The notes beneath the pieces were generated by a model, which was not told where the DNA came from, searched no databases, and saw nothing but the letters and a program-made list of their open reading frames with translations. Below, piece after piece: positions 7,182 through 58,347 of a DNA stretch of 64,000 nt. The first letter of the stretch is position 1; each line of letters opens with the position of its first letter. Source of the DNA: Candidatus Latescibacterota bacterium (lineage in GTDB: Bacteria > Latescibacterota > UBA2968 > UBA8231); NCBI GenBank assembly GCA_965200315.1, contig OZ241362.1, positions 544,001 through 608,000 of the forward strand. The letters run 5' to 3'. Made by a program: the position numbers and the translations under genes.

Positions 7182-7458
7182 AATTGACCCTCCAATGAGA
7201 GATTTAAGTTTTAAGAGTTGTAGCGCAACTTTTTGCGCCTTAGACCGCCGCCTCGCCGCTCTAAGGCCACAACCACCCACTCATACTCATGGTTCCTCTC
7301 CCTTAGCGACCCTTACAACTAATAGCTGAAGATCGTGTAGAGAAGCCCGAGATCATTATCATTTCATGTACTCAATACAAAATACGCATCTAATATCTAA
7401 GATGCAAGAGGTAGTTTCTAAACTTTAATGGCCCATCAACACCTAGCACGTAGAAAGA

Positions 7459-40557: not shown

Positions 40558-41632
40558 CAGCGACATGCTCCTCCCTCTGCAACTTGCACCCGTCGACAGC
40601 CTCTTCTTCCGCGATGCACGCCCCTTTGAGGAGGCCAGTCGCGCCGCCTCTGGCCTGCCCATGCCCCAGACCCTCGCCGGTGCCTTGCGCACCCTGCTGC
40701 TGGAGCATCACAGCGTGGACTTTGCCCAGTTAGCGAATCAGATCAAGGCAGGCAAACCGTTCGCCGAAGCCCTCTCTATAATCTGCCCGGCCGCCGCTGG
40801 CGTGGCCGCAGTGCGCTTGCGCGGCCCCTTTTTCACGTTGTCCGGTGAAGTCTTGGTGCGGGTCCCAAGCACCCTAAAGCAAATCGAAAAAACCGAGCAA
40901 CTCGTGCGGCTCGATCCATTGCAAAAACCCCCGCCCGGTTGGCAACCCCAAGCACCGGGCATGGTGCCGCTGTGGAGGCATGGCCGCAAACCAGCCAAAG
41001 CAATCGACGGCTTCCTCAAGCCCTCGGGCTTGCACCACTTCCTCACCGGCGACGTACCAACGCCGGATGACGTGGTGGCATCTAACGACGTTTACGATTT
41101 TGACGACCGCACGGGCATCGGCCTAGACGAACAGAGCAACACCGCCCAAGAAAGCCTCATCTACGGCATCAAGATGCTCGCACTGTGCCCCAAAGCCGGT
41201 CTATACGCCGAAGTGCGGGGCCCGGCCGACGCCTTGGCACCGCTTGCCGCTCAGGACGAGCCGCTCCTCATGCCCTTTGGCGGCGAGGGTCGGCGCGTCG
41301 TCGTCCGTGCAGCAGAGCAAGCAACGAACTGGTCGCAAGTACCGGCCACAGCCGACAAGGGCCGGTTGGTGCTGCTGACGGCACCGGCCTACTTCAACGG
41401 CTGGAAGCCCCCAGCGCTGGAGCCGCTCGCCGCGGCCGTCGGCCAGTACCAAGCCGTTTCCGGCTGGGACTTAGCCCAAGGCGGCCCCAAGCCCAACCGC
41501 TTCATGGTCCCGGCCGGCTCGGTGTACTTTCTGCCACCCCATACCCATGTACCCAGCGCCCTAGTCAGCGAAGAAGATGACGCGCTCGGCTGGGGCAGCT
41601 TTCTAGAAGGAAATTGGACCTATGTCGGATAA
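40550..41632 (+). CDS. cmr3: Type III-B Cmr3 (Cas5 group)
   Basis: PVDSLFFRDARPF, FGGEGR, SGWDL...PKP...VPAGSVYF, LGWG. Confidence 0.95.
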   Translation: MPNSDMLLPLQLAPVDSLFFRDARPFEEASRAASGLPMPQTLAGALRTLLLEHHSVDFAQLANQIKAGKPFAEALSIICPAAAGVAAVRLRGPFFTLSGEVLVRVPSTLKQIEKTEQLVRLDPLQKPPPGWQPQAPGMVPLWRHGRKPAKAIDGFLKPSGLHHFLTGDVPTPDDVVASNDVYDFDDRTGIGLDEQSNTAQESLIYGIKMLALCPKAGLYAEVRGPADALAPLAAQDEPLLMPFGGEGRRVVVRAAEQATNWSQVPATADKGRLVLLTAPAYFNGWKPPALEPLAAAVGQYQAVSGWDLAQGGPKPNRFMVPAGSVYFLPPHTHVPSALVSEEDDALGWGSFLEGNWTYVG

Positions 41633-42518
41633 AACCCTGCTGTTCATGCACGCCCTGACCGGGTTGCACCCAGGCAGCGGCACGGCCCTCGGCGTAGTCG
41701 ATCTGCCGGTGCAGCGCGAACGCCATACCCACTGGCCGACCATCCCCGGCTCGTCGCTGAAGGGCGTCCTCCGCGCCGAATGCCGGCGGGTTCTTGGCCG
41801 GGGAGCCGAGGACCTGCTAACGGCTTTTGGGCCGGAGATGGGCAACGCATCGGACCACGCCGGGGCCGTCGCCTTTGTGGACGCCCGCATTCTCGCCTTT
41901 CCGGTGCGCTCGCTGACCGGGGTGTTTGCTTGGGTGACCTGCCCGGCGGTGCTGGAGTGCCTCGCCCGCGACTTGGGGCTTGTGAGCAGCAACAAGCTCC
42001 CCGCCTTCCCCACTCCGAAGAAAGACACCGCTGCCTGTGTGCCCAACAGCCCGCTAATCGCGCACGACGAGCACCTGCTGTTGGAGGAATTTGAATTCGC
42101 CCTCGCCCGTGCCGACGCCGACGCCGACGCCAGCAAGATCGCCGACTGGATTGCGTGTCATGCCGTGCAAGACGAGGGGACAAGGGGCCGGCTGCGCCGT
42201 CACTTGGCCGTTTTGCACGACGACGATTTCACGCACTTCGTCCGCAACGCCACCGAAGTCGTCGCCCGCGTCGGCTTGGACTACGAATCGAAGACCGTGC
42301 GTAAGGGGGCGCTCTTTTACGAGGAATACCTACCGGCCGAGACCTTGTTCTATTCGCTGGTGCTGTCTAGCGACAGCCGCCGAGAATCGAATTCCAAAAG
42401 TGCCGCCCAGATCTTATCGTGGCTCCGCGACAACGCACCCACCGTGATTCAGATCGGCGGCGGCGAGACCGTTGGCAAGGGGCTATGTGCGGTCCACTTT
42501 GCGGAGGACATGCCATGA
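41622..42518 (+). CDS. cmr4: Type III-B Cmr4 (Cas7 group, target RNase)
   Basis: LHPGSG...VDLPVQRE (catalytic Asp present), IPGSSLKG, QIGGGETVGKG. Confidence 0.96.
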   Translation: MSDKTLLFMHALTGLHPGSGTALGVVDLPVQRERHTHWPTIPGSSLKGVLRAECRRVLGRGAEDLLTAFGPEMGNASDHAGAVAFVDARILAFPVRSLTGVFAWVTCPAVLECLARDLGLVSSNKLPAFPTPKKDTAACVPNSPLIAHDEHLLLEEFEFALARADADADASKIADWIACHAVQDEGTRGRLRRHLAVLHDDDFTHFVRNATEVVARVGLDYESKTVRKGALFYEEYLPAETLFYSLVLSSDSRRESNSKSAAQILSWLRDNAPTVIQIGGGETVGKGLCAVHFAEDMP

Positions 42519-42919
42519 GCACACTCGACCAGCGCCGGGCACAACACGCTTGGGACGCCGTAGAGCAAGCGGCCAAACTCAAAGAAGACGACAAGAAAAC
42601 CTTCGCCCGCGAGGCCAAGAAGCTCCCCATCCGCATCAAGACCGCAGGGCTTGGGCAAGCCGTTGCCTTTCTCCGTGCCAAGAAAGACAAGAAAAAGCGA
42701 GAAGATGAAGATCCTCGCATACGCCTACTGAGAGAGCTTGGCAACTGGCTCCTCGACGAGCGTGGCCTAGAGTCGCCTTCGCAGGATGAGGACGCCCTAA
42801 TCCAAGCCATCATCCGCGGCGACGCCGACCTGCTGCGCCGCGCCACCGAAGAGGCCCTGTTGTACTTGCAATGGCTGACGCGCTTTGCCGAAGCAGAAAT
42901 CGGGACCGGAGATGACTAA
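42515..42919 (+). CDS. cmr5: Type III-B Cmr5 small subunit
   Basis: TLDQRRA, KLPIRIKTAGLGQAVAFL, ATEEALLYLQWLTRFA. Confidence 0.93.
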   Translation: MSTLDQRRAQHAWDAVEQAAKLKEDDKKTFAREAKKLPIRIKTAGLGQAVAFLRAKKDKKKREDEDPRIRLLRELGNWLLDERGLESPSQDEDALIQAIIRGDADLLRRATEEALLYLQWLTRFAEAEIGTGDD

Positions 42920-45215
42920 AATTATGTCAGAGGTTCCGACCCTGCCGAAAACGACCCGCGACCTGCTCGCGGCTGTTGGCGTTAAAAAACGCCACCCCGG
43001 CCTCCAGCTAGACAAGCTATCGGCTGTCGGCAATATGGAAAGCCAGAAGCAGGCGTTGGAGAAAGTCACCGCTACGCACCGCGACAATCAGCTATTGCAA
43101 AAGCTACGCGACCGCCGCTGCGACACCTTAGACCAACTCTTGGCCCAGCGGCTGACGATGACCACGGGCGGTCCGCTGACCCTGCATCTGTCGCGCTCGG
43201 GCGCACTCGAAAACGCCGGTATCGCCCTGCACCCACTCTACGGCTTTGCATACCTGCCGGGCAGCGGCATCAAGGGGCTTACTCGGGCCTATGCCGAGAC
43301 TATATGGGCACCGGCTCAGCCCGACCCGGAAAAGGCGTGGCGGCAAATTGAAGGGGCATTTGGCTGGAGCAGGGGATCGGAACGCCACAAAGGGAATTGG
43401 CGGCCCCAAACAGTCGAGCCTCAAGCAGGAGCCTCGACCGGCCGCATCGTCTTTCACGACGCTTGGCCCCTGTGTTGGCCTAAGCTCATCATCGACATCG
43501 CCAACAATCACCATCCCGCCTACTACGACGGCCAAGACGATCCGGGCGACTGGGAAGACCCGACGCCGATCTACTTTCTCGCTCTCGGCGCGGGCGAGCA
43601 GTTCGACTTCGCCCTGTCAGACCGCAAGCGCGAAAACGACCGTCTGCTCAGCTTGGCCTGCGACTGGCTGAAAAGTGCCCTGACTATCGAGGGAGCCGGA
43701 GCCAAGACCGCCGCCGGCTACGGCCGCTTCAAGCCGAAGGAAGGAAAACGAGCCTCCATCCCGCAAACGCTATGTAGTGCGACCTATGATCTGCGGCTGG
43801 CATCGCCAGCTTTTCTCGCCGGTGCCAATCAGCAGCAAGAAGACTGCGATTTGCGGCCCGCCACCTTGCGCGGCCTATTGCGCTGGTGGTGGCGCACCAT
43901 GCATGCGGCCCACCTCGACCGCGCTACGCTCAAAAAGCTGGAAACCGCCGTTTGGGGCGACGCCGAGAGCGGCAGCCCAGTGCGGATTGCCGTGGAGCGA
44001 GAGGGAGACGAGAAGCCGACGAAGTACGACCACAAGGACGACAAGAAAAAGTTCCTGCCGGAATCCAATTTTAAGCGTCAGCATGACCTTCAAGCCCCTC
44101 CAGACAAGAAGACGACCCAAGGGCTATTCTACGCTTCCTACGGCATGGACGACGCAGGCAAGAAGCGTTGGTACCGACCCGCAGGGACACGGTGGTCCAT
44201 CCGCCTTGACGTCCGGCGCGGTCGCTTGCCAGTCAACACCCCACACATGCAACCGCTAAAAATTGAACCCGCCGACCTACTCGCTCAGGCTGAGGTCGCT
44301 CTCTGGCTGCTGTGCCGTTTTGGCGGCGTCGGCTCAAAAGGACGCAAGGGCTTCGGATCTTTTGCGGACATTGAAGTCGAGGGCATTGCCAACGCACAGG
44401 ATTGCCAAGACCGTGCTAGGGACTTCAGGAGGCATACATGCCAGCTTAGCGATCACCAAGGCAAGACAGGTTCGCCCGCGCTAGAGCAAATGAACACATG
44501 TGAGATTCTGACGCCTTGGAGCGACCCTTGGACGGTACTCGACCAACTTGGCTATGCGGTCCAAGGCTTCGCCCAGCAATATGCACATGACGAGCGCAAA
44601 AAAGCCCTCGGCCTGCCGCGGAAAATCCACGGTCCCCGATCTTTACCAATAGTTCATCAAAAACAAAATCCTCGCAACCACAAGCAGCCTAAGACGTTAT
44701 CCGCCGGCGGAATTAAGCGGCACACCGCGCCCATTCACTATCACTTAGCGACAACAGACGAGGGCAAGCTACTCGTCCGCGCAACCGCTTTCCCAGCGCA
44801 TCGGCTACCCAATTATCGGAAAAGCAAAGAGATGCTGGACAAACTGGTGGCCTTTCTCAAAGAGGATCTGAAGAAACGCGTAGAACAGAATCCCAACATC
44901 GGCCAAAACCAAGGTGGGAACAGCCCGGCGAAACCGGCGAAACCCCTCCCCCAAGCCCGCGACCGCGTTCAAGCCGAACTCTTAGACGAAAAGACGAAGA
45001 AAGGCCGTTGGAAAGCCAAGCTCTTAGATGGGGAACTACAAGGCCCGATACAAGACCACGAAAACGTGCCGGACGACGCTAAGCCGGGGCAGCGTGTCGA
45101 ACTGACGGTGGTCTCTGTTAGCGAGAGAGAGGTGCAGTTCAGATGGAAACCGCTTCCAACGCCCAAGAAAACATCCGGCCAGAACAATGAACAACGGCGA
45201 GGACGCCGACGATAG
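42912..45215 (+). CDS. cmr6: Cmr6-Cmr1 fusion RAMP with C-terminal beta-rich extension
   Basis: Cmr6 motifs (YLPGSGIKG, FHDAWP, GAGAKTAAGYG), then Cmr1 motifs (LRGLLRWWWR, GGVGSKGRKGFGS, LGLPR). Confidence 0.9.
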   Translation: MTKIMSEVPTLPKTTRDLLAAVGVKKRHPGLQLDKLSAVGNMESQKQALEKVTATHRDNQLLQKLRDRRCDTLDQLLAQRLTMTTGGPLTLHLSRSGALENAGIALHPLYGFAYLPGSGIKGLTRAYAETIWAPAQPDPEKAWRQIEGAFGWSRGSERHKGNWRPQTVEPQAGASTGRIVFHDAWPLCWPKLIIDIANNHHPAYYDGQDDPGDWEDPTPIYFLALGAGEQFDFALSDRKRENDRLLSLACDWLKSALTIEGAGAKTAAGYGRFKPKEGKRASIPQTLCSATYDLRLASPAFLAGANQQQEDCDLRPATLRGLLRWWWRTMHAAHLDRATLKKLETAVWGDAESGSPVRIAVEREGDEKPTKYDHKDDKKKFLPESNFKRQHDLQAPPDKKTTQGLFYASYGMDDAGKKRWYRPAGTRWSIRLDVRRGRLPVNTPHMQPLKIEPADLLAQAEVALWLLCRFGGVGSKGRKGFGSFADIEVEGIANAQDCQDRARDFRRHTCQLSDHQGKTGSPALEQMNTCEILTPWSDPWTVLDQLGYAVQGFAQQYAHDERKKALGLPRKIHGPRSLPIVHQKQNPRNHKQPKTLSAGGIKRHTAPIHYHLATTDEGKLLVRATAFPAHRLPNYRKSKEMLDKLVAFLKEDLKKRVEQNPNIGQNQGGNSPAKPAKPLPQARDRVQAELLDEKTKKGRWKAKLLDGELQGPIQDHENVPDDAKPGQRVELTVVSVSEREVQFRWKPLPTPKKTSGQNNEQRRGRRR

Positions 45216-45340: not shown

Positions 45341-46045
45341 ATGGAAGTTTTGAACTCATTGGCCGCCAAACCAACGCGGCCCCTATTGGAAAACGGCGAC
45401 CGGCTCACGCGAGCGGAATTTGAGCAACGCTACGAGGCCATGCCCGAAGTAAAAAAGGCCGAACTCATCAATGGAGTAGTATATATGGGCTCCCCCGTTC
45501 GCTTTCGTGCCCACGGCCACCCACACGTATTGCTGCTCACTTGGCTAGGGACATATAGCGCATTCACCCCAGGGGTTCTTTGTGCGGACAACGCCACGGT
45601 GCGGCTCGGGGCCGATAGCGAGCTTCAGCCGGATGCCTTGCTGCGCCTAGAGTTAGAGGTGGGGGGAAAGTCGCGGATTAGCACCGACGATTACGTAGAA
45701 GGCCCTCCAGAGTTAGTTGCCGAAATCGCAGCTAGCAGCACCTCGTACGATATGCACGATAAAATGGACGTGTATCGCCGCAGCGGTGTGCCGGAATACC
45801 TAGTCTGGCGCGTGTACGACGAGCAACTCGACTGGTTTGCCTTGCACGACGGTGCGTATATCCGCCTACTGCCCGATACGGCGGGCGCGATTTCGAGCGA
45901 CATATTTCCGGGGTTGCGATTGTTCCCATCGGCCTTGTTGGCCCATAATGCGGCGCAAGTCGTGGCCGAATTGCAAAAAGGCCTGGCGACGACCGCGCAC
46001 ACCGCGTTTATTGATCGCTTAGGAAGCGAAAAACCCAATGCCTAG
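45341..46045 (+). CDS. Uma2-family (PD-(D/E)xK) endonuclease
   Basis: LENGDRLTRAEFE, AELING, QPDA, PELVAEIA, GVPEYLVW. Confidence 0.92.
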   Translation: MEVLNSLAAKPTRPLLENGDRLTRAEFEQRYEAMPEVKKAELINGVVYMGSPVRFRAHGHPHVLLLTWLGTYSAFTPGVLCADNATVRLGADSELQPDALLRLELEVGGKSRISTDDYVEGPPELVAEIAASSTSYDMHDKMDVYRRSGVPEYLVWRVYDEQLDWFALHDGAYIRLLPDTAGAISSDIFPGLRLFPSALLAHNAAQVVAELQKGLATTAHTAFIDRLGSEKPNA

Positions 46046-46103
46046 ACACACTCTTATATGCACCATTGGCACCCACAACGCGCGCAAGCGCAAGGAGAGC
46101 ACC

Positions 46104-47222
46104 ATGACGACAATGCCTAGACACACCCTCATCTGCACCATTGGCACCAGCTTGTTCTACCCCAACCTGTCCAAGCTCGCGCAAACGAATCCAACGAATC
46201 CGCTAGGCAAGGCGTATGCGGGGCAAAAATGGAAGAACGTAGCCAGCCAACTGCATCTGCTTGAACCTACTGATCGGCAGTGTGGAGCCGAGATCAACTC
46301 GGTAGCCGATCTCCTACGCCGCGAATACATCGACAAGGTTCACTTACATCTGCTGTATTCCGATACGTCGGATGGAGAGCACATTGCCGCTGTCTTGGAC
46401 GCGTACTTTGCGGACGATGGCTGGCAGGTGCAAACCCATAGAGTATGCGATTTAAGCGACCAAGATCCGAGGGCGTTTCGCACCCGCGGCTTGCGCAACC
46501 TAGCCAAAATTCTCGGCCAATTGGTGCGCGACGCCGGGCCAGACTACTGCGCCATCAACGCTACCGGCGGCTACAAGGCGCAGATCGCCATTGCCGTGCT
46601 CATGGGTCAAGCCCTCGGCATTCCGGTGTACTACAAGCACGAGCGTTTTGATGAAATTATTCCCTTTCCGCCCATGCCAGTGGCCCTCGATTTTTCGCTC
46701 TGGCTCCGGGCCAGCGGCATGTTTACAGCACTCAGCCAGCCCAACGCCTGCGTGCCGGAGGCGCAGTTCAGCGAGGACTGGGATGAGCGCTTTGAGCCGC
46801 TGGTCGAACGGGTATCTATCGACGGCGTAAACTACCTCGAACTCTCGGCGACCGGCCAGATTTTTCACGACACCTTCCGTTCGCGTTTTCAGCAGCAGCA
46901 AGCCGGCAGCCTGCCGCCCGAGTCAAGCAAAAAGGAGGACCCTGAGCTGGGAGCGCACAGCTACAAAAACGCACACGAAACCATTTCGCGCTTTTTGCAA
47001 AAAATCACCGATGAGCGGCCTTACGTCCGTTCCTGTCACTCAACGTACTGGAACCCGGACCTACCTGAAGCGAATCGATTTCGCCTGTCCGGCGGACAAG
47101 TCCAAGGCATCTACTCGAACAGAACTTGGTGCGTGAAGTTCACAGTGCTTACAACCGCCAGCGAGCAGGACGACTTAGGCGTTGTCGTGGCCGATCTCAA
47201 CGAGTGGCTTAGTGATCAATAG
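46104..47222 (+). CDS. CRISPR-associated CARF protein (APE2256 family) with wHTH and DUF2103-like C-terminal domain
   Basis: ICTIGTS, GAEINS, SDT..G, NATGGYK, YYKHE.F. ATG 46104 follows an AAGGAG RBS; an in-frame upstream start exists at 46038. Confidence 0.85.
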   Translation: MTTMPRHTLICTIGTSLFYPNLSKLAQTNPTNPLGKAYAGQKWKNVASQLHLLEPTDRQCGAEINSVADLLRREYIDKVHLHLLYSDTSDGEHIAAVLDAYFADDGWQVQTHRVCDLSDQDPRAFRTRGLRNLAKILGQLVRDAGPDYCAINATGGYKAQIAIAVLMGQALGIPVYYKHERFDEIIPFPPMPVALDFSLWLRASGMFTALSQPNACVPEAQFSEDWDERFEPLVERVSIDGVNYLELSATGQIFHDTFRSRFQQQQAGSLPPESSKKEDPELGAHSYKNAHETISRFLQKITDERPYVRSCHSTYWNPDLPEANRFRLSGGQVQGIYSNRTWCVKFTVLTTASEQDDLGVVVADLNEWLSDQ

Positions 47223-47239: not shown

Positions 47240-48289
47240 ATGGCGACTTCATTGCTCACTCTCTACGTCACCGAACCGTCCGCTGTAGTTCGCCGCTCGG
47301 CTGGCTCCCTCATCGTCACCCTCGACGAAGACCCAGACGGCGGCGGCCCCTTGCCCGAGCGTCGCCATCGCCTCCTTGAGGTGGAGCCGCATCGCTTGGA
47401 GCTGATTGCGCTGGTTGGCCGCGCCCATATCACTTTAGACGCAACGCGGCTTTGCTTGGAGCAAGGCATTGCGGTCGCTTGGTTTCGCCGCAACGGCGAC
47501 TTTATCGGCCGCCTCGTGCCCGAGCTATCGCGCACAGCCGATCTGCGCTTGGCCCAGTTTCGCCTCGCCGACGACGAGCAGCGAGCACTGCCGCTAGCCC
47601 AAACCTTTGTCGCTGCTAAGCTCCACAATGCGGCCTCTGTGCTCGCGGCCCTGCGCTCCAACCGCCGTAACGAGCCGACCCTCGGACGCTCCATAAGTGA
47701 ACTCAAGGCCCTCGCCGCAACGGTTGACCAAGCATCCACCCGGGAAACTCTACTCGGGTTTGAGGGCGATGCGGCCCGCCGCTACTTTGCCGGCCTCAAA
47801 ATCGGCTTCACCAGCGACATCCGCTTTACTAGGCGCGCCCGCCGGCCGCCGCCGGACCCGGCCAATGCTCTGCTCTCGTTTGGCTACGTGCTGTTGGCCA
47901 ATGCCTTGGCCAGCCTACTGGAGGCCCGCGGCTTTGACCCGTATTTAGGCTTTATGCACACGGTGCGTTCCGGTCGGCCCAGTTTGGCTCTCGACCTGCT
48001 CGAAGAATTGCGGCATCCGGTGGTCGATCGCTTTGTCTTGCGGGCCTGCAATTTGCGCCAGTTGCGGCCCGCCCACTTTGAGACCGATCCAAAGCGGGGT
48101 GGTGTACGTCTTACACCCGCTGGGTTGCGCGTTTTCTTTCGCATTTGGGAAGCATTTATGGACGCGCCCCTACCCGGGACTGGAGACACTATTTCGCCGG
48201 AAGATTTGCTCCGCCGTCAAGCCGACCGCTTAGCCGATCACGTGAGGGGACGCCAGCCATACCAGCCCTTGCTTCTGCGCCACGTATAA
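47240..48289 (+). CDS. cas1: CRISPR-associated endonuclease Cas1 (no RT or Cas4 fusion)
   Basis: LLGFEGDAARRYF, RPPPDPANALLSFGY, GFDPYLGFMH, LALDLLEELR. Confidence 0.96.
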   Translation: MATSLLTLYVTEPSAVVRRSAGSLIVTLDEDPDGGGPLPERRHRLLEVEPHRLELIALVGRAHITLDATRLCLEQGIAVAWFRRNGDFIGRLVPELSRTADLRLAQFRLADDEQRALPLAQTFVAAKLHNAASVLAALRSNRRNEPTLGRSISELKALAATVDQASTRETLLGFEGDAARRYFAGLKIGFTSDIRFTRRARRPPPDPANALLSFGYVLLANALASLLEARGFDPYLGFMHTVRSGRPSLALDLLEELRHPVVDRFVLRACNLRQLRPAHFETDPKRGGVRLTPAGLRVFFRIWEAFMDAPLPGTGDTISPEDLLRRQADRLADHVRGRQPYQPLLLRHV

Positions 48290-48300
48290 GGAGCGTTGCC

Positions 48301-48588
48301 ATGTCTCATTATGTCGTCTGCTACGATGTGGTCGATAACCGCCGCCGCTACAAGGTGGCTGCTTGTCTGGATGCCTATGGCGACCGCGTACAGGACAGCG
48401 TGTTTGAACTGCCCGTGGATCGCACACTCTTGGATAAATGCCTCGTCGCGCTTGCAGATTTGATCGACCCAGACAAAGACAACATCGCTGTCTATCGCCT
48501 ATGCACCACTTGCGCGAGCGAGCGTTTCTATTTGGGAACGGGCGCAAGGGCTGGGCGCATCGGCGAGGAGCAGGTCTTTATTGCATAA
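48301..48588 (+). CDS. cas2: CRISPR-associated Cas2
   Basis: YVVCYDV..NRRR...YGDRVQDSVFE; AAGGAG RBS. Confidence 0.95.
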   Translation: MSHYVVCYDVVDNRRRYKVAACLDAYGDRVQDSVFELPVDRTLLDKCLVALADLIDPDKDNIAVYRLCTTCASERFYLGTGARAGRIGEEQVFIA

Positions 48589-48784
48589 AGGACATTCGTA
48601 ACCTTCATTCCTCCTCCAAACGAAAGGGGATTACGAATTTGACTAAGCCTTTGAATTTCTTATCTTTACATGCCACGCACTCACACGGATGCCGCTGCGG
48701 TAGGCAGAGCTTATACGCTCCGCCATTGGGTTACGAAATTCGTCCAGCTAACTGCTTGTTAGACAAGCAAATAGCCGAGATGGA
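48589..48784 (+). promoter_or_regulatory. CRISPR leader
   Basis: Relatively AT-rich non-coding stretch between cas2 and the first repeat; TGCTTGT-tag-ACAAGCA palindrome near the repeat. Confidence 0.75.
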
Positions 48785-51700
48785 GTGTGAAATGTTGCCC
48801 CGATTTCTAGGGGATTGAAACTTACGCCGACCTGGACCCGGCCGGTGGCCCGGGCCCGGCGTGTGAAATGTTGCCCCGATTTCTAGGGGATTGAAACGCT
48901 GGGTGCGGGGATACTGAAAAGTCGTCATTACGATCTCGTGTGAAATGTTGCCCCGATTTCTAGGGGATTGAAACTGCGGGGTGGGTGGAGCGGGGGGGGG
49001 GGGGTTAGGCGCGTGTGAAATGTTGCCCCGATTTCTAGGGGATTGAAACGCCGAAGCCAACGGTCACGCCAGGACAGCACTGCCCCCTCGTGTGAAATGT
49101 TGCCCCGATTTCTAGGGGATTGAAACTCCGACATGCCCGCCTGCCTGAGGGCGAGGCGGACGAAGTGTGAAATGTTGCCCCGATTTCTAGGGGATTGAAA
49201 CGATAACAACTATCCTCCGCCCGGAGGCGGGGGTTTGCCTGTGTGAAATGTTGCCCCGATTTCTAGGGGATTGAAACCTGCCGCACCGTGGTGGCGGGGG
49301 GAAGGTTGAGAATGGGGGTGTGAAATGTTGCCCCGATTTCTAGGGGATTGAAACCCGATGACCGCCATCGCTTCGAGGAATTCACGGAAGCGGGGTGTGA
49401 AATGTTGCCCCGATTTCTAGGGGATTGAAACTTGATGGCCGCAGGGGTCTTCGGCTCGAACCGGGGCGCGTGTGAAATGTTGCCCCGATTTCTAGGGGAT
49501 TGAAACACTGCTTCGATGGTGCTCATGATGATTCCTTTCTGAAAGGGTGTGAAATGTTGCCCCGATTTCTAGGGGATTGAAACCCGCCCGGTAGGCCGGC
49601 CCGCCCGTGGCGAGCAAGATAAAGTGTGAAATGTTGCCCCGATTTCTAGGGGATTGAAACTATAGGGCTTTTGGAGTTTACAAAAAAGTTAGGCACGGGT
49701 GTGAAATGTTGCCCCGATTTCTAGGGGATTGAAACCTTTGGTGGCCGCTGGCGCGCGCGCCTCGAACCGGGGCGCCGGCGTGTGAAATGTTGCCCCGATT
49801 TCTAGGGGATTGAAACTCCTTCTTGGAGGACACCGCGCCGATCGCCATCCCTATTGTGTGAAATGTTGCCCCGATTTCTAGGGGATTGAAACTGTGCTGC
49901 GGGGGTGGCTTGAGTCGTCATTGTAACAAGTGTGAAATGTTGCCCCGATTTCTAGGGGATTGAAACCGGGGGCGGTTTTCTGAGTGGTCGTCATAACAAT
50001 CTCCGTGTGAAATGTTGCCCCGATTTCTAGGGGATTGAAACCCTCCACCTGGTGGTAGGCGTGGCCGTAGCCATCGCCGTGTGAAATGTTGCCCCGATTT
50101 CTAGGGGATTGAAACCTTCTGCCTGGTAATGCAGGAAGGCCAACGTATGGCGGGTGTGAAATGTTGCCCCGATTTCTAGGGGATTGAAACTGCCATTGAT
50201 TGTGAGGGTGGCGGGGCCCTCGAGGGGTACGTTGTGTGAAATGTTGCCCCGATTTCTAGGGGATTGAAACAGGAGCTGCCGACAGCGGCTCACGACGAGA
50301 CCCGCTGCACGTGTGAAATGTTGCCCCGATTTCTAGGGGATTGAAACACAATCCCCTCTCCGCGAGGGGTTTCGGCGCGCGCCCCGACGATGGGGGCCGC
50401 GCCGACTTCCGTGTGTGAAATGTTGCCCCGATTTCTAGGGGATTGAAACCGCGACATAGCGGATGAGCTCCGCCTCTTTGGCAGGCTCGTGTGAAATGTT
50501 GCCCCGATTTCTAGGGGATTGAAACTGACCACCACCGCCTCAAGGAGTTCACGGCAGCGGGTCATGTGTGAAATGTTGCCCCGATTTCTAGGGGATTGAA
50601 ACAAGAAATACCAACCCGCGACTAACTCGCGCGGAACATCTTGTGTGAAATGTTGCCCCGATTTCTAGGGGATTGAAACGCGATAATAAAGCAATGCGTT
50701 TCATTTCAATCTCCTAATGGTGTGAAATGTTGCCCCGATTTCTAGGGGATTGAAACCTTCTTGGAGGTGGCCGTGGTGGTCATGCTATTCTCCTTCCCCG
50801 TGTGAAATGTTGCCCCGATTTCTAGGGGATTGAAACTCTCCTTGCCCCTGTGGGGCTATGAGAGTTAGTACAAAAAAGGTGTGAAATGTTGCCCCGATTT
50901 CTAGGGGATTGAAACCTTCTTGGAGGTGGCCGTGGTGGTCATGCTATTCTCCTTCCCCGTGTGAAATGTTGCCCCGATTTCTAGGGGATTGAAACTCTCC
51001 TTGCCCCTGTGGGGCTATGAGAGTTAGTACAAAAAAGGTGTGAAATGTTGCCCCGATTTCTAGGGGATTGAAACGCAGCTTCTCGAAGACCTCCCGCGAT
51101 GCTCTGCGGCGATGGTGTGAAATGTTGCCCCGATTTCTAGGGGATTGAAACATTGGGCAGTACGAAAGTTGTCATACGATTCTCCTTGCCCGTGTGAAAT
51201 GTTGCCCCGATTTCTAGGGGATTGAAACGGACGAGGGACGTGCGGGCGGTTAGGAGTTTCATTTTCAATGTGTGAAATGTTGCCCCGATTTCTAGGGGAT
51301 TGAAACACAGACGACGGCGACCAAGTGAATCGGCAGGGTGCCGATCAGTGTGAAATGTTGCCCCGATTTCTAGGGGATTGAAACTGCAATCTCCTCTAGT
51401 GCGGCCGTTATGGCCTCCGAGAGAGTGTGAAATGTTGCCCCGATTTCTAGGGGATTGAAACGCGATAATAAAGCAATGCGTTTCATTTCAATCTCCTAAT
51501 GGTGTGAAATGTTGCCCCGATTTCTAGGGGATTGAAACCTTCTTGGAGGTGGCCGTGGTGGTCATGCTATTCTCCTTCCCCGTGTGAAATGTTGCCCCGA
51601 TTTCTAGGGGATTGAAACTCTCCTTGCCCCTGTGGGGCTATGAGAGTTAGTACAAAAAAGGTGTGAAATGTTGCCCCGATTTCTAGGGGATTGAAACGCA

Positions 51701-54700
51701 GCTTCTCGAAGACCTCCCGCGATGCTCTGCGGCGATGGTGTGAAATGTTGCCCCGATTTCTAGGGGATTGAAACATTGGGCAGTACGAAAGTTGTCATAC
51801 GATTCTCCTTGCCCGTGTGAAATGTTGCCCCGATTTCTAGGGGATTGAAACGGACGAGGGACGTGCGGGCGGTTAGGAGTTTCATTTTCAATGTGTGAAA
51901 TGTTGCCCCGATTTCTAGGGGATTGAAACACAGACGACGGCGACCAAGTGAATCGGCAGGGTGCCGATCAGTGTGAAATGTTGCCCCGATTTCTAGGGGA
52001 TTGAAACTGCAATCTCCTCTAGTGCGGCCGTTATGGCCTCCGAGAGAGTGTGAAATGTTGCCCCGATTTCTAGGGGATTGAAACCCGCGCCAGCTTGTAC
52101 TTATACGTCATCATTGCGCGGCGGTGTGAAATGTTGCCCCGATTTCTAGGGGATTGAAACTTCCATTCTCCTTTTTTACGGTGCATGCCTTGACAAACCA
52201 GTGTGAAATGTTGCCCCGATTTCTAGGGGATTGAAACCCTTTCCCCCCAAAACGCACACGGCGCACGGCCGCTAAGTGTGAAATGTTGCCCCGATTTCTA
52301 GGGGATTGAAACCTCCTTGCCCCGTTAGGGGCTCTCTATGGAGTGAATACAAGTGTGAAATGTTGCCCCGATTTCTAGGGGATTGAAACTCGTCATCTTT
52401 CTCTTTCTCCTTCTCCTTTCTTTCTTGTGTGAAATGTTGCCCCGATTTCTAGGGGATTGAAACCTCCGCCTTATGGATTTGATGGCGGCGGCGGTCGGCC
52501 TCGTGTGAAATGTTGCCCCGATTTCTAGGGGATTGAAACTTGGGGGACAGCCGGACGGCGTTGTCGTACTCCTCAACGGGTGTGAAATGTTGCCCCGATT
52601 TCTAGGGGATTGAAACACGGTTTCGCGGACGGACTGGGACTGCTGGGTGCTGCTGGGTGTGAAATGTTGCCCCGATTTCTAGGGGATTGAAACGGGGCGA
52701 GCCCCCAGTTCCCGCAGAATATTGTCCACCATCCGTGTGAAATGTTGCCCCGATTTCTAGGGGATTGAAACGATGGCACGGGTTGAACTGGTGCTGCTGG
52801 ACTGCATGCTGCGTGTGAAATGTTGCCCCGATTTCTAGGGGATTGAAACCATGTGAAGAAGTAATAGCCTTCGGGGCGTGCTGCCCCGTGTGTGAAATGT
52901 TGCCCCGATTTCTAGGGGATTGAAACCTGCCGCGCCCCTTCATGGCTAAGGTCGCGGGGGGCTATGTGTGAAATGTTGCCCCGATTTCTAGGGGATTGAA
53001 ACCCAGGCCCGCGCGCCAACACTGTGCTCCTCTACATCTACGTGTGAAATGTTGCCCCGATTTCTAGGGGATTGAAACGCGAGACTGCTGGGTGCGGGGG
53101 TACTGGAACGTGGTCATGTGTGAAATGTTGCCCCGATTTCTAGGGGATTGAAACCGGCGGCGGCCTTCTGCCTCAGCCCAGGCGCGCAGCCCCCGTGTGA
53201 AATGTTGCCCCGATTTCTAGGGGATTGAAACCAACTTCGGCCATTCGGCCGCCTGAAAATATAGTTCAAGTGTGAAATGTTGCCCCGATTTCTAGGGGAT
53301 TGAAACGGCGGGAGGGGTGGGGCGGGGGGCTATGCGCGGCCGGCGGGTGTGAAATGTTGCCCCGATTTCTAGGGGATTGAAACATGCTTTTCTCCTTCTT
53401 TGGGGGTGAAAAAAACTGGTTTCGGTGTGAAATGTTGCCCCGATTTCTAGGGGATTGAAACTTGTGCAATACTTTTTTTCTCTTATTCCCCACTTTTCAC
53501 GTGTGAAATGTTGCCCCGATTTCTAGGGGATTGAAACATCCCGATGCGGGCGAAGCGCGTAAGGGTCTCGATGGTCTCGGTGTGAAATGTTGCCCCGATT
53601 TCTAGGGGATTGAAACTCATGGGTGGCCTCCTTGAGCTGGGCGAGTAGCTCCGGAGAGTGTGAAATGTTGCCCCGATTTCTAGGGGATTGAAACCCGCGA
53701 CATTCTCATCGCGGGCGGCATCGAGCCGCTCTTCGTGTGAAATGTTGCCCCGATTTCTAGGGGATTGAAACACCTCCCCAAGGATGAGCGTAAGGTGCAG
53801 GTACAGCGCTGTGTGAAATGTTGCCCCGATTTCTAGGGGATTGAAACAAGCTAGAGCGTTTTTTCGATAGTTCGTCGGGCACCTCCGGTGTGAAATGTTG
53901 CCCCGATTTCTAGGGGATTGAAACTATTTCTGCTGGCTTCAAGCTCGGCGTGGGCTGAGCCGCCCTGTGCGGCCTACGTGTGAAATGTTGCCCCGATTTC
54001 TAGGGGATTGAAACAGATCTACGGTTGCGCGGATGCGCGCATCGCGCTCCGCAGGTGTGAAATGTTGCCCCGATTTCTAGGGGATTGAAACGTCGTGCCC
54101 AGGACGTGGGAGGCTAACCGCTTTCGCGGCGTGTGAAATGTTGCCCCGATTTCTAGGGGATTGAAACGGAGTCGGAGTCGTAGCGGGACCAGTCCCTTAT
54201 GAGGACAGGTGTGAAATGTTGCCCCGATTTCTAGGGGATTGAAACCTGACCGACGCGGTGAAGTGCGACGTCACCTTGTCGATGTGTGAAATGTTGCCCC
54301 GATTTCTAGGGGATTGAAACACGTAGACTACCGTCGCCTTCTCCTCGCCGTCCGCCGACTCCGGTGTGAAATGTTGCCCCGATTTCTAGGGGATTGAAAC
54401 GTGGCGCGACACGAAGATATTCATTTCAATCTCCTTGGGAGTGTGAAATGTTGCCCCGATTTCTAGGGGATTGAAACGTGCTGCGAGACTGCGACTGCTG
54501 ATTGGGGTACTGAAAAGGTGTGAAATGTTGCCCCGATTTCTAGGGGATTGAAACTCAGTAACCTCTGGCGGCGCGAACTTCGGCGTCGCGCATGTGTGAA
54601 ATGTTGCCCCGATTTCTAGGGGATTGAAACAGGATTAGGTGGGTGTGGGGGGCTAACCCCACGGATTTGGAGAGTGTGAAATGTTGCCCCGATTTCTAGG

Positions 54701-57316
54701 GGATTGAAACCGCGTCCCCGGAGGGGTTTTAACGTGCAATTCCCAACCGTGTGAAATGTTGCCCCGATTTCTAGGGGATTGAAACTGCTGCTGGTTTGGC
54801 AGTACGAAAGTTGTCATGCGAGTGTGTGAAATGTTGCCCCGATTTCTAGGGGATTGAAACATCTTGTAGGTGGTCATAGTTCAATCCTCTCGGTTGGCGA
54901 GGTGTGAAATGTTGCCCCGATTTCTAGGGGATTGAAACGGAAATACAACTCTACTTCTACTTTCTTCATCTTCATGAGTGTGAAATGTTGCCCCGATTTC
55001 TAGGGGATTGAAACCATAGACATCGACGCGGTAGACCGCGACACCAACTTCAGTGTGAAATGTTGCCCCGATTTCTAGGGGATTGAAACTCTGCGAGAGA
55101 CTCGCGGAGCTCGTTTTCGCCCATGCCGAGTGTGAAATGTTGCCCCGATTTCTAGGGGATTGAAACGGGGATGCCGTTTGTCTCCAATTCGGCGCGGGCG
55201 CGGGTGTGAAATGTTGCCCCGATTTCTAGGGGATTGAAACACGGGTTGCGTGCGCGTGCCCACTACCTCGTACTAGGAGGTGTGAAATGTTGCCCCGATT
55301 TCTAGGGGATTGAAACACGCCGGTTGGCCGAGCCGGGGGCCTTGCCAGTGCGGCCGGGTGTGAAATGTTGCCCCGATTTCTAGGGGATTGAAACGAAAGG
55401 ATGCGCATGAGTGTTCGGGGGCCGGGCGTCATCGTGTGAAATGTTGCCCCGATTTCTAGGGGATTGAAACGGACCGGCGCGTGCGGGTTAGTGGGCGCTG
55501 CGCATGATCTCGTGTGAAATGTTGCCCCGATTTCTAGGGGATTGAAACGTGAATAACCACGCCTCCCTCTTCGGGGGCGGCGGCCTTGGGTGTGAAATGT
55601 TGCCCCGATTTCTAGGGGATTGAAACGCTACTGCGCTGTCGACCAATCCGAAGATGCGCGAAGGCGTGTGAAATGTTGCCCCGATTTCTAGGGGATTGAA
55701 ACACCAGTCATGTAGAGATGGCACGGAGTACTTCCCGTGAGGGTGTGAAATGTTGCCCCGATTTCTAGGGGATTGAAACTCTGCGAGAGACTCGCGGAGC
55801 TCGTTTTCGCCCATGCCGAGTGTGAAATGTTGCCCCGATTTCTAGGGGATTGAAACGGGGATGCCGTTTGTCTCCAATTCGGCGCGGGCGCGGGTGTGAA
55901 ATGTTGCCCCGATTTCTAGGGGATTGAAACACGGGTTGCGTGCGCGTGCCCACTACCTCGTACTAGGAGGTGTGAAATGTTGCCCCGATTTCTAGGGGAT
56001 TGAAACACGCCGGTTGGCCGAGCCGGGGGCCTTGCCAGTGCGGCCGGGTGTGAAATGTTGCCCCGATTTCTAGGGGATTGAAACGAAAGGATGCGCATGA
56101 GTGTTCGGGGGCCGGGCGTCATCGTGTGAAATGTTGCCCCGATTTCTAGGGGATTGAAACGGACCGGCGCGTGCGGGTTAGTGGGCGCTGCGCATGATCT
56201 CGTGTGAAATGTTGCCCCGATTTCTAGGGGATTGAAACGTGAATAACCACGCCTCCCTCTTCGGGGGCGGCGGCCTTGGGTGTGAAATGTTGCCCCGATT
56301 TCTAGGGGATTGAAACGCTACTGCGCTGTCGACCAATCCGAAGATGCGCGAAGGCGTGTGAAATGTTGCCCCGATTTCTAGGGGATTGAAACACCAGTCA
56401 TGTAGAGATGGCACGGAGTACTTCCCGTGAGGGTGTGAAATGTTGCCCCGATTTCTAGGGGATTGAAACGCGAGCTTCTCCGCCGCGGCGCGTTTCACGC
56501 CGGCCGCGGTGTGAAATGTTGCCCCGATTTCTAGGGGATTGAAACCGGCCGTGCTCGCTGGCGTCATACTGAAAGGATGCGCATGAGTGTGAAATGTTGC
56601 CCCGATTTCTAGGGGATTGAAACTAGTTCTCCCGGGGCTCGCTACGGGGCCATACAAAAACGGTGTGAAATGTTGCCCCGATTTCTAGGGGATTGAAACT
56701 CGGTGCGCTGCTCGGTGGTGCGGGTTTCTTTTTTAGCAGGTGTGAAATGTTGCCCCGATTTCTAGGGGATTGAAACCTGCTGCGCCCGCCGGTGGCGCCG
56801 CAGAGCAGCCCCCGGTGTAAAATGTTGCCCCGATTTCTAGGGGATTGAAACCGGACTATCCGGCGTCAAAAAGGCAACTAGAAGCTACAGTGTGAAATGT
56901 TGCCCCGATTTCGAGGGGATTGAAACAGTTTCCCCCCCCTCGAAGACGTGGTAATGAGCTAGGGGCTGTGTGAAATGTTGCCCCGATTTCTAGGGGATTG
57001 AAACGGCACTGTAGTGCTCGAAGGCTAGTTGGTGGCGGATGGCGTGTGAAATGTTGCCCCGATTTCTAGGGGATTGAAACTGCCAGCGCAAACAACGCGC
57101 TGGGGTGAAATGCAACTGCGTGTGAAATGTTGCCCCGATTTCTAGGGGATTGAAACCCATGCGCTGGGCCTCGTCGTAGACGATGAACGGGTAGGTGGTG
57201 TGAAATGTTGCCCCGATTTCTAGGGGATTGAAACCCTGGTAAGCGGTAAGGCTATCACACACTCGCTACTATTTAACCAGTATAAAATGTTACCCCCATT
57301 ATCAGGGAATCGACAC
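48785..57316 (+). CRISPR. CRISPR array, 37-nt repeat GTGTGAAATGTTGCCCCGATTTCTAGGGGATTGAAAC, about 110 repeats plus a degenerate terminal repeat, spacers mostly about 37-44 nt
   Basis: Manual count gives about 110 spacers (about 91 unique). The CCCC/GGGG hairpin, the ATTGAAAC 3' end (type III 8-nt tag), the left-hand leader and the degenerate repeat at 57280-57316 all indicate + strand transcription. Confidence 0.99.
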
Positions 57317-57360: not shown

Positions 57361-57519
57361 ATAAAGTTGCGTCCACCGCCTGCTTGACGCTCTAAAAACA
57401 AAGGCATTATTTAGCGGCTGGGCGATCAGACTGAAGCTCTTTTGCTATGGATTGGCGCGAGCACCTCGACTACCCCCGGGTGCGCGGGCGTCTCGCCCGC
57501 TTTGCGTGTCACTTTTACT

Positions 57520-58347
57520 ATGGATTGGCGCGAGCACCTCGACTACCTACTCTCTTGCGTTCAGATACAGGCGCGGCTGTTGCTGCTAGACACGCCTCTA
57601 GTTGAAGCGACCACGCCCATGTTGCGGGGCGTCTGGGGGCGGGCACTGCGGCATTTGGACGAGGAGGCGTATCAGCAGGTGTTCGCAGGCGACATGCTGG
57701 GGCATCGGCGCGTCCCCCGCTACATCCTGAGGCCAGCACCCCCCGACCCAGCGACTGCACCGGCCATCGAATGGCTCTTGCTCGGAGTCCACGAAAATTT
57801 AGAAGAAGTATTGTGGCGGGCTTGGGACGTGGCCAGCGGCATGGGGCTGGGGCCTGAGCGCACACCCTTTCGCGTACGCGAATGGCGACCGCTGGGCGCG
57901 GATAAATGGGACTTATCCACTGCAACCTGGCCCCTGCCCGGCGACCCCGCCACTACGCCGTGCCGCCTGCATTTCCCTACATCCCTGCGACTGCTCCGGG
58001 GCGGCAAACTGCTTTCCACCCCAAACTTAGAGGATGTGGCGACAGCTACCACACGCCGCATCGCCACGCTAGCCGGCACAACCAGCGGAGAAACCTATCG
58101 AGATTTAATCCGAAATATCGGTCAGGTGGCCGCCGGGCTAGCGGGTGCTCCGTGGCGCGGGCGGCGGTTCGACTTTGTGCGCTGGTCCGGTGCCCAACAG
58201 CGCGAGCTAAACATGCGCGGCGTGACCGGCGACTTAGCCCTGCCCACAGGGCCCGGCCCACTCTGGCCGCTATTGGCCGCCGCTTGCTGGACCCATATTG
58301 GCAAAGGCACGGTCTTTGGGCTAGGCCAATTGCACATCACACCGTAA
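57520..58347 (+). CDS. cas6: CRISPR pre-crRNA processing endoribonuclease Cas6
   Basis: MLRGVWGRAL, LHFPTSLRL, C-terminal G-loop HIGKGTVFGLG; lies directly after the array. Confidence 0.88.
   Translation: MDWREHLDYLLSCVQIQARLLLLDTPLVEATTPMLRGVWGRALRHLDEEAYQQVFAGDMLGHRRVPRYILRPAPPDPATAPAIEWLLLGVHENLEEVLWRAWDVASGMGLGPERTPFRVREWRPLGADKWDLSTATWPLPGDPATTPCRLHFPTSLRLLRGGKLLSTPNLEDVATATTRRIATLAGTTSGETYRDLIRNIGQVAAGLAGAPWRGRRFDFVRWSGAQQRELNMRGVTGDLALPTGPGPLWPLLAAACWTHIGKGTVFGLGQLHITP

Follow-up and report, generated by a model that had tools for sequence, protein, structure and literature searches.

Does a natural type III CRISPR array sample the genes of its invaders evenly, or do its guides gather where translation begins? 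The question is raised by a stretch of 64,000 nt from Candidatus Latescibacterota bacterium (hereafter the window; assembly GCA_965200315.1, contig OZ241362.1, positions 544,001 to 608,000 of the forward strand), in which a long CRISPR array, here called A1, is adjoined by a type III-B (Cmr) gene set. A first-pass annotation of the window, which had already assigned the system to type III, proposed that the CRISPR RNAs (crRNAs) of A1 are strongly enriched for antisense to ribosome-binding sites (RBS) and start codons. Guides predicted to be antisense to the RBS and start codons of invader genes are indeed over-represented in A1, which confirms the core of that proposal, while the word 'strongly' does not hold: A1 surpasses its sister arrays only about 2-fold, and a part of this excess is owed to one gene family. 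Coordinates below are those of the window, unless they are given as genome positions.

The 37-nt repeat of A1 (GTGTGAAATGTTGCCCCGATTTCTAGGGGATTGAAAC) is present in 110 copies, only two of which carry a single substitution, and separates spacers (sp) that are mostly 37-44 nt long. The array and its flanks are laid out as follows:
48785..57316, + strand: CRISPR array A1, with 110 full repeats, 110 spacers (91 unique) and one degenerate terminal repeat
57280-57316, + strand: the degenerate terminal repeat, at the distal end
48589..48784, + strand: the leader, AT-rich, with a sigma-70-like site (TTGACT-16-TATCTT at 48639-48666, a consensus match only)
Internal duplications of repeat-spacer units (50680-52047 and 55090-56432) account for blocks in which sp25-27 equal sp35-37 (sp26-27 also equal sp28-29), sp30-34 equal sp38-42 and sp82-90 equal sp91-99. 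Three spacers are outliers, namely sp3 (48975-49012), which holds a run of 13 G, sp21 (50348-50412; 65 nt) and sp67 (53925-53977; 53 nt). The repeat ends at its 3' side in the 8-nt ATTGAAAC, the usual 8-nt crRNA tag, and a Cas6 gene lies downstream of the array. The position of this tag, the promoter-like leader and the decayed distal repeat indicate that the crRNAs would be read from the + strand, and therefore the reverse complement of each spacer should have the sense of its target RNA (the target-sense strand).

On this strand assignment, a loose motif (an SD, i.e. Shine-Dalgarno, core GGAG, GAGG or AGGA followed after 3-10 nt by ATG) was found on the target-sense strand in 12 of the 91 unique spacers, as against 3 of 91 when the crRNA strand was scanned. 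A strict version (GGAG or GAGG, 4-10 nt, ATG, and a frame open to the end of the spacer), applied to 90 spacers with the last one (before the degenerate repeat) left out, sharpened the contrast to 10/90 against 0/90; composition shuffles of the A1 spacers gave a mean of 1.2 (none of 300 shuffles reached 10), and random 40-mers of the host genome carried the strict motif in 1.7% of cases. The count on both strands against random 40-mers, which the first-pass annotation had put forward as a check, agrees with it and with its remark that same-sense examples are rare. Furthermore, a hypothesis-free scan for strand asymmetry among all 4-6-mers placed TCTCCT (10:0), TCTCC (15:2), GTCAT (14:1) and CGTCA (9:0) among its top words, although G-rich words (e.g. 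GGGTG, 12:0) were likewise near the top. Looser motifs were set aside for their high background (with AAGG cores admitted, or an ATG allowed at the edge of the spacer: 12 vs 5 and 11 vs 6 in A1; edge ATGs 24 vs 24 in the sister array A2, described below).

Judged by eye, a start codon is present in 18 of the 91 unique spacers, and six further ones (sp27, sp46, sp34, sp60, sp8 and sp74) fall within ~50 nt of such starts: the targets of sp27, sp46, sp34 and sp60 carry an SD at their end, and those of sp8 and sp74 begin a few codons past a start that is visible in a homologous spacer. These numbers bear out the earlier estimate of roughly 20 spacers with SD or ATG gene starts among about 91, and the eight examples then quoted were all recovered as reverse complements of spacers (sp26, 25, 16, 10, 79, 44, 63 and 73). 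Pooled over the 18 spacers, GC content after the putative ATG is 0.48, 0.50 and 0.74 at codon positions 1, 2 and 3 (chi-square for codon periodicity, p = 6e-6), next to a third-position GC (GC3) near 0.71 in long open reading frames (ORFs) of the host, and it is 0.48 upstream of the ATG; such periodicity is expected of real coding starts and not of chance ATGs, so far as it can be read from the spacers. The start-proximal spacers outside the recurrent family treated below are these (the description refers to the target-sense strand):
49507..49546, +: sp10, AAAGGAATCATC-ATG, MSTIEA
49817..49855, +: sp14, ATG, MAIGAVSSKK; homologous to the sp26 target
49893..49929, +: sp15, ATG, MTTQATPAA
49967..50004, +: sp16, GGAGATTGTT-ATG, MTTTQKTAP
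50526..50565, +: sp23, target begins at the ATG, MTRCRELLEAVVV
49355-49394, +: sp8, codons 2-14 of a variant of the sp23 target
50680..50719 (copy 51462-51501), +: sp25, TAGGAGATTGAA-ATG, MKRIALLS
50757..50799 (copies 50916-50958 and 51539-51581), +: sp26, AAGGAGAATAGC-ATG, MTTTATSKK
51229..51269 (copy 51852-51892), +: sp32, ATTGAAA-ATG, MKLLTARTSLV
52085..52123, +: sp43, ATG, MMTYKYKLAR
52161..52200, +: sp44, AAAAAGGAGA-ATG-GAA at the 3' end of the target
52390..52426, +: sp47, purine-rich leader with two GGAG, then ATGACGA
53617..53657, +: sp63, AAGGAGGCCACCC-ATG at the 3' end of the target; diverged homologue in A2
54401..54440, +: sp73, AAGGAGATTGAA-ATG, MNIFVSRH
54861..54901, +: sp79, GAGAGGATTGAACT-ATG, MTTYK; homologue in A2
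53384..53424, +: sp60, target ends in AAGGAGAAAAGCAT, SD present and start codon cut off (by eye)
51385-51424 (copy 52008-52047), +: sp34, target ends in GAGGAGATTGCA (by eye)

A separate observation concerns the repeat itself, whose 3' end (GGGGATTGAAAC) resembles a common target start (GGAGATTGAAATG). Targeted starts that share GGAGATTGAA(A)ATG (50680-50719, 54401-54440, 51229-51269 and 54861-54901) resemble this repeat end too, and the spacer part of the corresponding crRNAs would therefore be partly complementary to their own 5' tag; the likeness may be a coincidence.

The most conspicuous concentration of spacers is at the putative start of one gene family (F1), to which the following belong:
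50837..50878 (copies 50996-51037 and 51619-51660), +: sp27, a hairpin, then GGGGCAAGGAGA at the target-sense end; 5' untranslated region (UTR) of F1
52313..52352, +: sp46, a variant of the F1 5' UTR, ending in GGGGCAAGGAG
51152..51191 (copy 51775-51814), +: sp31, AAGGAGAATCGT-ATG, MTTFVLPN
54786..54823, +: sp78, ATG, MTTFVLPNQQ
48898..48937, +: sp2, ATG, MTTFQYPRTQ
53079..53117, +: sp56, target begins exactly at the ATG, MTTFQYPRTQQSR
54478..54517, +: sp74, about codons 3-15 of an F1 variant
Spacers sp31, sp78, sp2, sp56 and sp74, together with one A2 spacer, align over the F1 start (MTTF[QV][YL]P...), and the sp27 target overlaps the 5' end of the sp31 target, which is formed by the same hairpin and GGGGCAAGGAG that end the sp27 and sp46 targets. 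Since their sequences differ, the F1 spacers would represent independent acquisitions from diverged variants. Seven of 90 A1 spacers consequently tile ~105 nt of the F1 5' UTR and first codons, for which uniform sampling of 40-130 kb gives a rough Poisson P of about 1e-5 to 1e-8 with all possible windows of that kind allowed for (the figure of 130 kb was estimated from the number of overlapping spacer pairs). Further starts are matched recurrently by sp15/16, sp26/14, sp23/8 and sp79/43; roughly half of the recurrently matched sites that involve A1 are gene starts, and among overlapping spacer pairs within A1 or A2 the orientation is common to both members in 22 of 24. Part of the A1 excess is, on these alignments, made up of repeated matches to the presumed F1 gene.

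How large the excess is depends on what it is compared with. By our own arithmetic, an SD-ATG motif of ~14 nt fits a 40-nt span in 27 registers and about half of genes should be detectable by it, so that uniform sampling would yield about 2% at a start spacing of 650 nt and 4.5% at 300 nt, to which the background adds ~2% (the crRNA-strand rate, 15 of 700 spacers); A1 reaches 11%. The nearest comparison within the same genome is the sister array:
genome 129082-147678: array A2, with 246 repeats and 242 unique spacers; the 3' half of its repeat and the 8-nt tag are common to A1
genes before A2: an AAA-ATPase/PDDEXK_9 protein, Cas6, an HD-only protein, a CARF protein, TPR-PrimPol, Cas1 and Cas2
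Here the strict motif was found in 16/242 spacers (6.6%) on the target-sense strand and in 8 on the crRNA strand, and ten arrays of other species in the genus, whose repeats are related, gave 16/368 (4.3%) against 7. A codon model built on host ORFs (80% correct on host 40-mers) classed 60/90 spacers of A1 and 149/242 of A2 as antisense-like. By Fisher's test the strict-motif rate of A1 is above that of the relatives (p = 0.02), while its difference from A2 is not significant (p = 0.18). No effector complex genes adjoin A2. As regards the remaining CRISPR content of the genome, four further small arrays with other repeats (genome 71-838, 7732-8194, 3780242-3782141 and 4186939-4188014), four Cas1 matches and a second Cas10 (genome 3009565-3009978, - strand) were observed, and spacers from arrays A3 and A6 are overlapped, in opposite orientation, by a few of those in A2. 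Apart from one low-complexity pair, no spacer overlap above threshold was detected between this genome and the ten related arrays, and none among the relatives themselves.

The rates in A2 and the relatives are what one would look for if there were no positional bias at all, that is, if the known antisense bias met many short genes and a few conserved genes of related viruses were matched over and over. The relatives and A2 lie near the sum of the uniform expectation and the background, the start-codon spacers belong to few families, and all of them are leader-proximal (18 of the 69 unique spacers that precede sp80, none of the 22 older ones at 54939-57279; p = 0.005, with the split chosen post hoc), a distribution for which a single virus lineage could be responsible. 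To produce 18 start codons in 91 spacers, however, uniform sampling would need starts ~190 nt apart, and neither the seven spacers inside ~105 nt of one gene nor the share of recurrent A1 sites that lie at starts is expected from it; an appeal to short genes plus chance is weakened by the F1 hot spot, and we regard it as improbable. We thus consider the apparent excess at starts in A1 to be genuine but moderate (about 2- to 5-fold) and partly local.

The first-pass annotation had allowed that A1 might be regulatory should its targets turn out to be host genes, in which case the array would mask ribosome-binding sites of the host. No full-length match to the A1 spacers was detected in the 5.36-Mb host genome, where the best match outside CRISPR arrays spans 21 nt, and on that account the regulatory alternative is not supported. 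Nothing in A1 speaks for it; three A2 spacers do match host genes perfectly (100% identity over 36-38 nt at genome 477096-477133, 4657264-4657299 and 213121-213157), two of these sites also being present in related genomes, but all three lie in mid-gene and run in the direction of the long, high-GC3 ORF that they overlap, so their crRNAs cannot pair with those mRNAs. We give host regulation practically no credence. The purely sense orientation of the self-matches is consistent with what counter-selection against self-targeting guides would leave behind (n = 3).

The wider mapping of spacers that the same annotation had called for did not yield a protospacer in any of the collections searched. 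Neither blastn of 7.9 kb of array against INPHARED, nor scans of IMG/VR with exact or degenerate patterns from conserved spacer cores, nor a scan of a genome contig collection for such cores gave a match, and BLAST of A1 against 60 related genomes (and of part of A2 against 40) returned nothing beyond matches to repeats, to sister arrays and to conserved host genes. One match from a metagenome scan (L003) was taken as chance, as it lies inside a gene with no preceding ATG. A foreign origin of the A1 targets is supported by the host comparison.

The gene content around A1 delimits the mechanisms that may be considered. A complete type III-B module with Cas1 and Cas2 is situated just upstream of the array on the same strand, and Cas6 just downstream:
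37939..40557, +: Cas10/Cmr2 (TIGR02577 219.8 bits, cut-off 79.4; PF12469, PF22335), with GGDD at residues 656-659
40472..41632, +: Cmr3 (PF09700 189.3 bits; TIGR01888 99.8 bits, slightly below the cut-off of 100.4)
41622..42518, +: Cmr4 (TIGR02580 254.8 bits)
42419..42919, +: Cmr5 (PF09701 97.6 bits)
42885..45215, +: Cmr6-Cmr1 fusion of 776 aa in one ORF (TIGR01898 101 bits, residues 110-283; TIGR01894 44.2 bits, residues 308-493)
45341-46045, +: Uma2-family endonuclease, after the Cmr genes and before the CARF gene
46038..47222, +: CARF-domain ancillary protein, Cas_APE2256 (PF09651 114.4 bits)
47240..48289, +: Cas1, 349 aa, stand-alone and without a reverse transcriptase (RT) domain (PF01867 283.6 bits)
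48289..48588, +: Cas2 (PF09827 67.6 bits)
57442..58347, +: Cas6 (PF10040 41.5 bits)
The relatives of this Cas10 at 68-73% identity are labelled as Candidatus Latescibacterota metagenome-assembled genomes, which fits a poorly sampled lineage whose viruses are absent from the collections. Elsewhere in the window, a 2259-aa ORF (501-7280, - strand) is opposed by evenly spaced 185-aa ORFs on the other strand, which hint at internal repeats.

An accumulation of spacers at transcript 5' ends could in principle arise if spacers were copied from RNA, either by an RT or by the primase-polymerase encoded at A2. RT-Cas1 systems sample abundant RNAs, according to the published account (PMC8860593), and in RT-Cas1 type III systems (e.g. 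that of Marinomonas mediterranea) spacer content is likewise tied to transcription. Moreover, the TPR-PrimPol (a CRISPR-associated primase-polymerase, CAPP; NF040561 358.3 bits, cut-off 200, and PF22548 146.3 bits) is followed by the Cas1 and Cas2 genes of A2, an order that corresponds to the CAPP_A architecture described in PMC8211822. This module is, however, located beside A2 and not beside A1, the array with the stronger bias; characterised CAPPs are described as preferring DNA templates and priming poorly on RNA (PMC8211822). In addition, no match to the reverse transcriptase family PF00078 was detected in the whole genome, and because the Cas1 of A1 is unfused as well, its spacers should come from DNA. 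Copying from RNA is, in our judgement, very unlikely.

Published work on type III-A of Streptococcus thermophilus, whose adaptation hot spots the first-pass annotation had overlooked, offers a closer parallel. Spacer uptake in that system is reported to be independent of a protospacer-adjacent motif and of orientation, with hot spots in promoter regions, in 5' UTRs and about 10-50 nt past start codons (PMC8860593, 2021). A hot spot that closely follows an early phage promoter is further reported to arise at adaptation, with no need for interference, to be lost when the -10 element is destroyed, to become larger when the start codon is removed, and to be visible among natural spacers too (PMC13575424, 2026). 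A1 is similar in that its spacers appear to lie at promoter regions, 5' UTRs and start codons, in that one gene is matched repeatedly, and in that its Cas1-Cas2 pair lacks an RT; start-codon enrichment of the kind seen at S. thermophilus hot spots is found in A1 on the level of motifs. It differs in its subtype (III-B, Cmr), in belonging to a distant and apparently uncultivated lineage, and in being a natural, already selected array with targets inferred from its spacers. Type III of Thermus thermophilus resembles the present genome in other respects (no RT, a strong strand bias, several arrays and cas1 genes), although the abstract of that study mentions no start-codon focus (PMC7515739); acquisition there is described as proceeding from both strands in the absence of selection, the strand bias of surviving clones being due to selection (PMC7515739).

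The Thermus case shows why selection has to be weighed on its own. Under uniform uptake, crRNAs against initiation regions might simply protect better and be kept, whether the RNA is more accessible there, leaves the RNA polymerase first, or is bound so that the ribosome is blocked. That selection is clearly at work is apparent from the orientation bias (the strict motif on one strand only, and the near-uniform orientation of overlapping pairs); common starts are matched by two arrays with different adaptation modules, the low upstream GC fits weakly structured RNA, and in Thermus the bias in spacer origin has been put down to selection (PMC7515739). On the other hand, sp27 and sp46 lie wholly in the 5' UTR and sp8 and sp74 wholly past the start, leaving the RBS uncovered, the excess is small in related arrays whose repeats are of this kind, and the S. 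thermophilus bias was seen without interference (PMC13575424). Selection as the only cause is therefore a serious contender that we nevertheless think unlikely.

As the likeliest cause we consider, with moderate confidence and largely by analogy, a transcription-linked uptake that favours the surroundings of promoters and start codons, after which selection keeps the antisense guides. In such a scheme A1 would supply a type III-B (Cmr) system with its crRNAs, the guides being mostly antisense to invader transcripts and over-sampling the 5' parts of genes (5' UTR, Shine-Dalgarno site, start codon and roughly the first 15 codons). Plain Cas1-Cas2 would prefer DNA near the promoters and start codons of transcribed invader genes, as in S. 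thermophilus III-A; only those spacers whose crRNA pairs with mRNA would then protect and persist, and self-derived spacers would survive only in the harmless sense orientation. Such sorting by orientation has been described for both Thermus and S. thermophilus, and the present data are consistent with it. The SD and ATG letters would thus mark where a spacer came from and not a functional requirement: because some targets end before the ATG is reached, uptake concentrated around the start is a better fit than a need to cover the RBS, and added silencing by RBS occlusion (to which the first-pass annotation had alluded) is not needed to explain the pattern. Interference would proceed as in other Cmr systems, with RNA cleavage by Cmr4 and a cyclic-oligoadenylate signal from the GGDD site of Cas10 to the CARF protein, both predicted from gene content alone.

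Several observations weigh against uptake near starts, besides the non-significant difference between A1 and A2. Start enrichment is not general for this repeat family, the ten related arrays being, by motif count, near the level of uniform sampling plus background. The 18 start-codon spacers were chosen by eye and several are homologous, and since several match the same gene family they are not independent. Their coverage peaks at about -5 to +20 from the ATG, so that detectable coverage in A1 centres on the ATG, unlike the +10 to +50 of S. thermophilus, a comparison of peaks that is weak in that spacers wholly inside +10 to +50 are not recognisable without their targets. At least sp25 and sp63 look, by eye, like internal, translationally coupled starts and not like first genes after a promoter, and none of the three self-derived A2 spacers is near a start, all being placed in mid-gene. 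A promoter reading of TTTTTGTA (upstream in sp27, sp12 and sp102) was dropped, as host gene starts carried it 10 times against 11 in the control. Furthermore, gene-start positions, promoters and expression timing are inferred from fragments of 37-44 nt, given that the collections searched held no protospacer, and in a natural array the effects of uptake and of selection are confounded.

Antisense orientation to transcripts is an established trait of type III arrays, and the strand asymmetry of A1 would for this reason be no news by itself. To our knowledge, S. thermophilus III-A is so far the only system in which experiments have demonstrated a start-proximal bias. As those experiments already show the phenomenon, we regard A1 as a natural example of it in another subtype and lineage and not as a new kind of system, and its pattern does not establish a new mechanism. 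The interpretation first offered for this locus is partly supported, in that the crRNA strand, the III-B assignment, the over-representation of start regions and the foreign targets are retained. If the preferred reading, uptake near promoters and starts with subsequent antisense selection, is true, A1 would provide independent natural evidence (from type III-B, a different phylum and 110 spacers) that type III memory is focused on the 5' ends of invader genes. Moreover, for targets that are absent from collections, strand-specific SD/ATG motifs and codon periodicity within the spacers can reveal the direction of an array, its targeting of RNA and the place of its protospacers in genes. It is a more doubtful proposition that start-proximal spacer choice is inherent in type III adaptation and conserved between subtypes and phyla, perhaps additionally reinforced by a faster or stronger immunity from RBS guides (through accessible RNA or a block of translation); were it nonetheless true, natural arrays could be read as maps of the promoters and gene starts of never-sequenced invaders.

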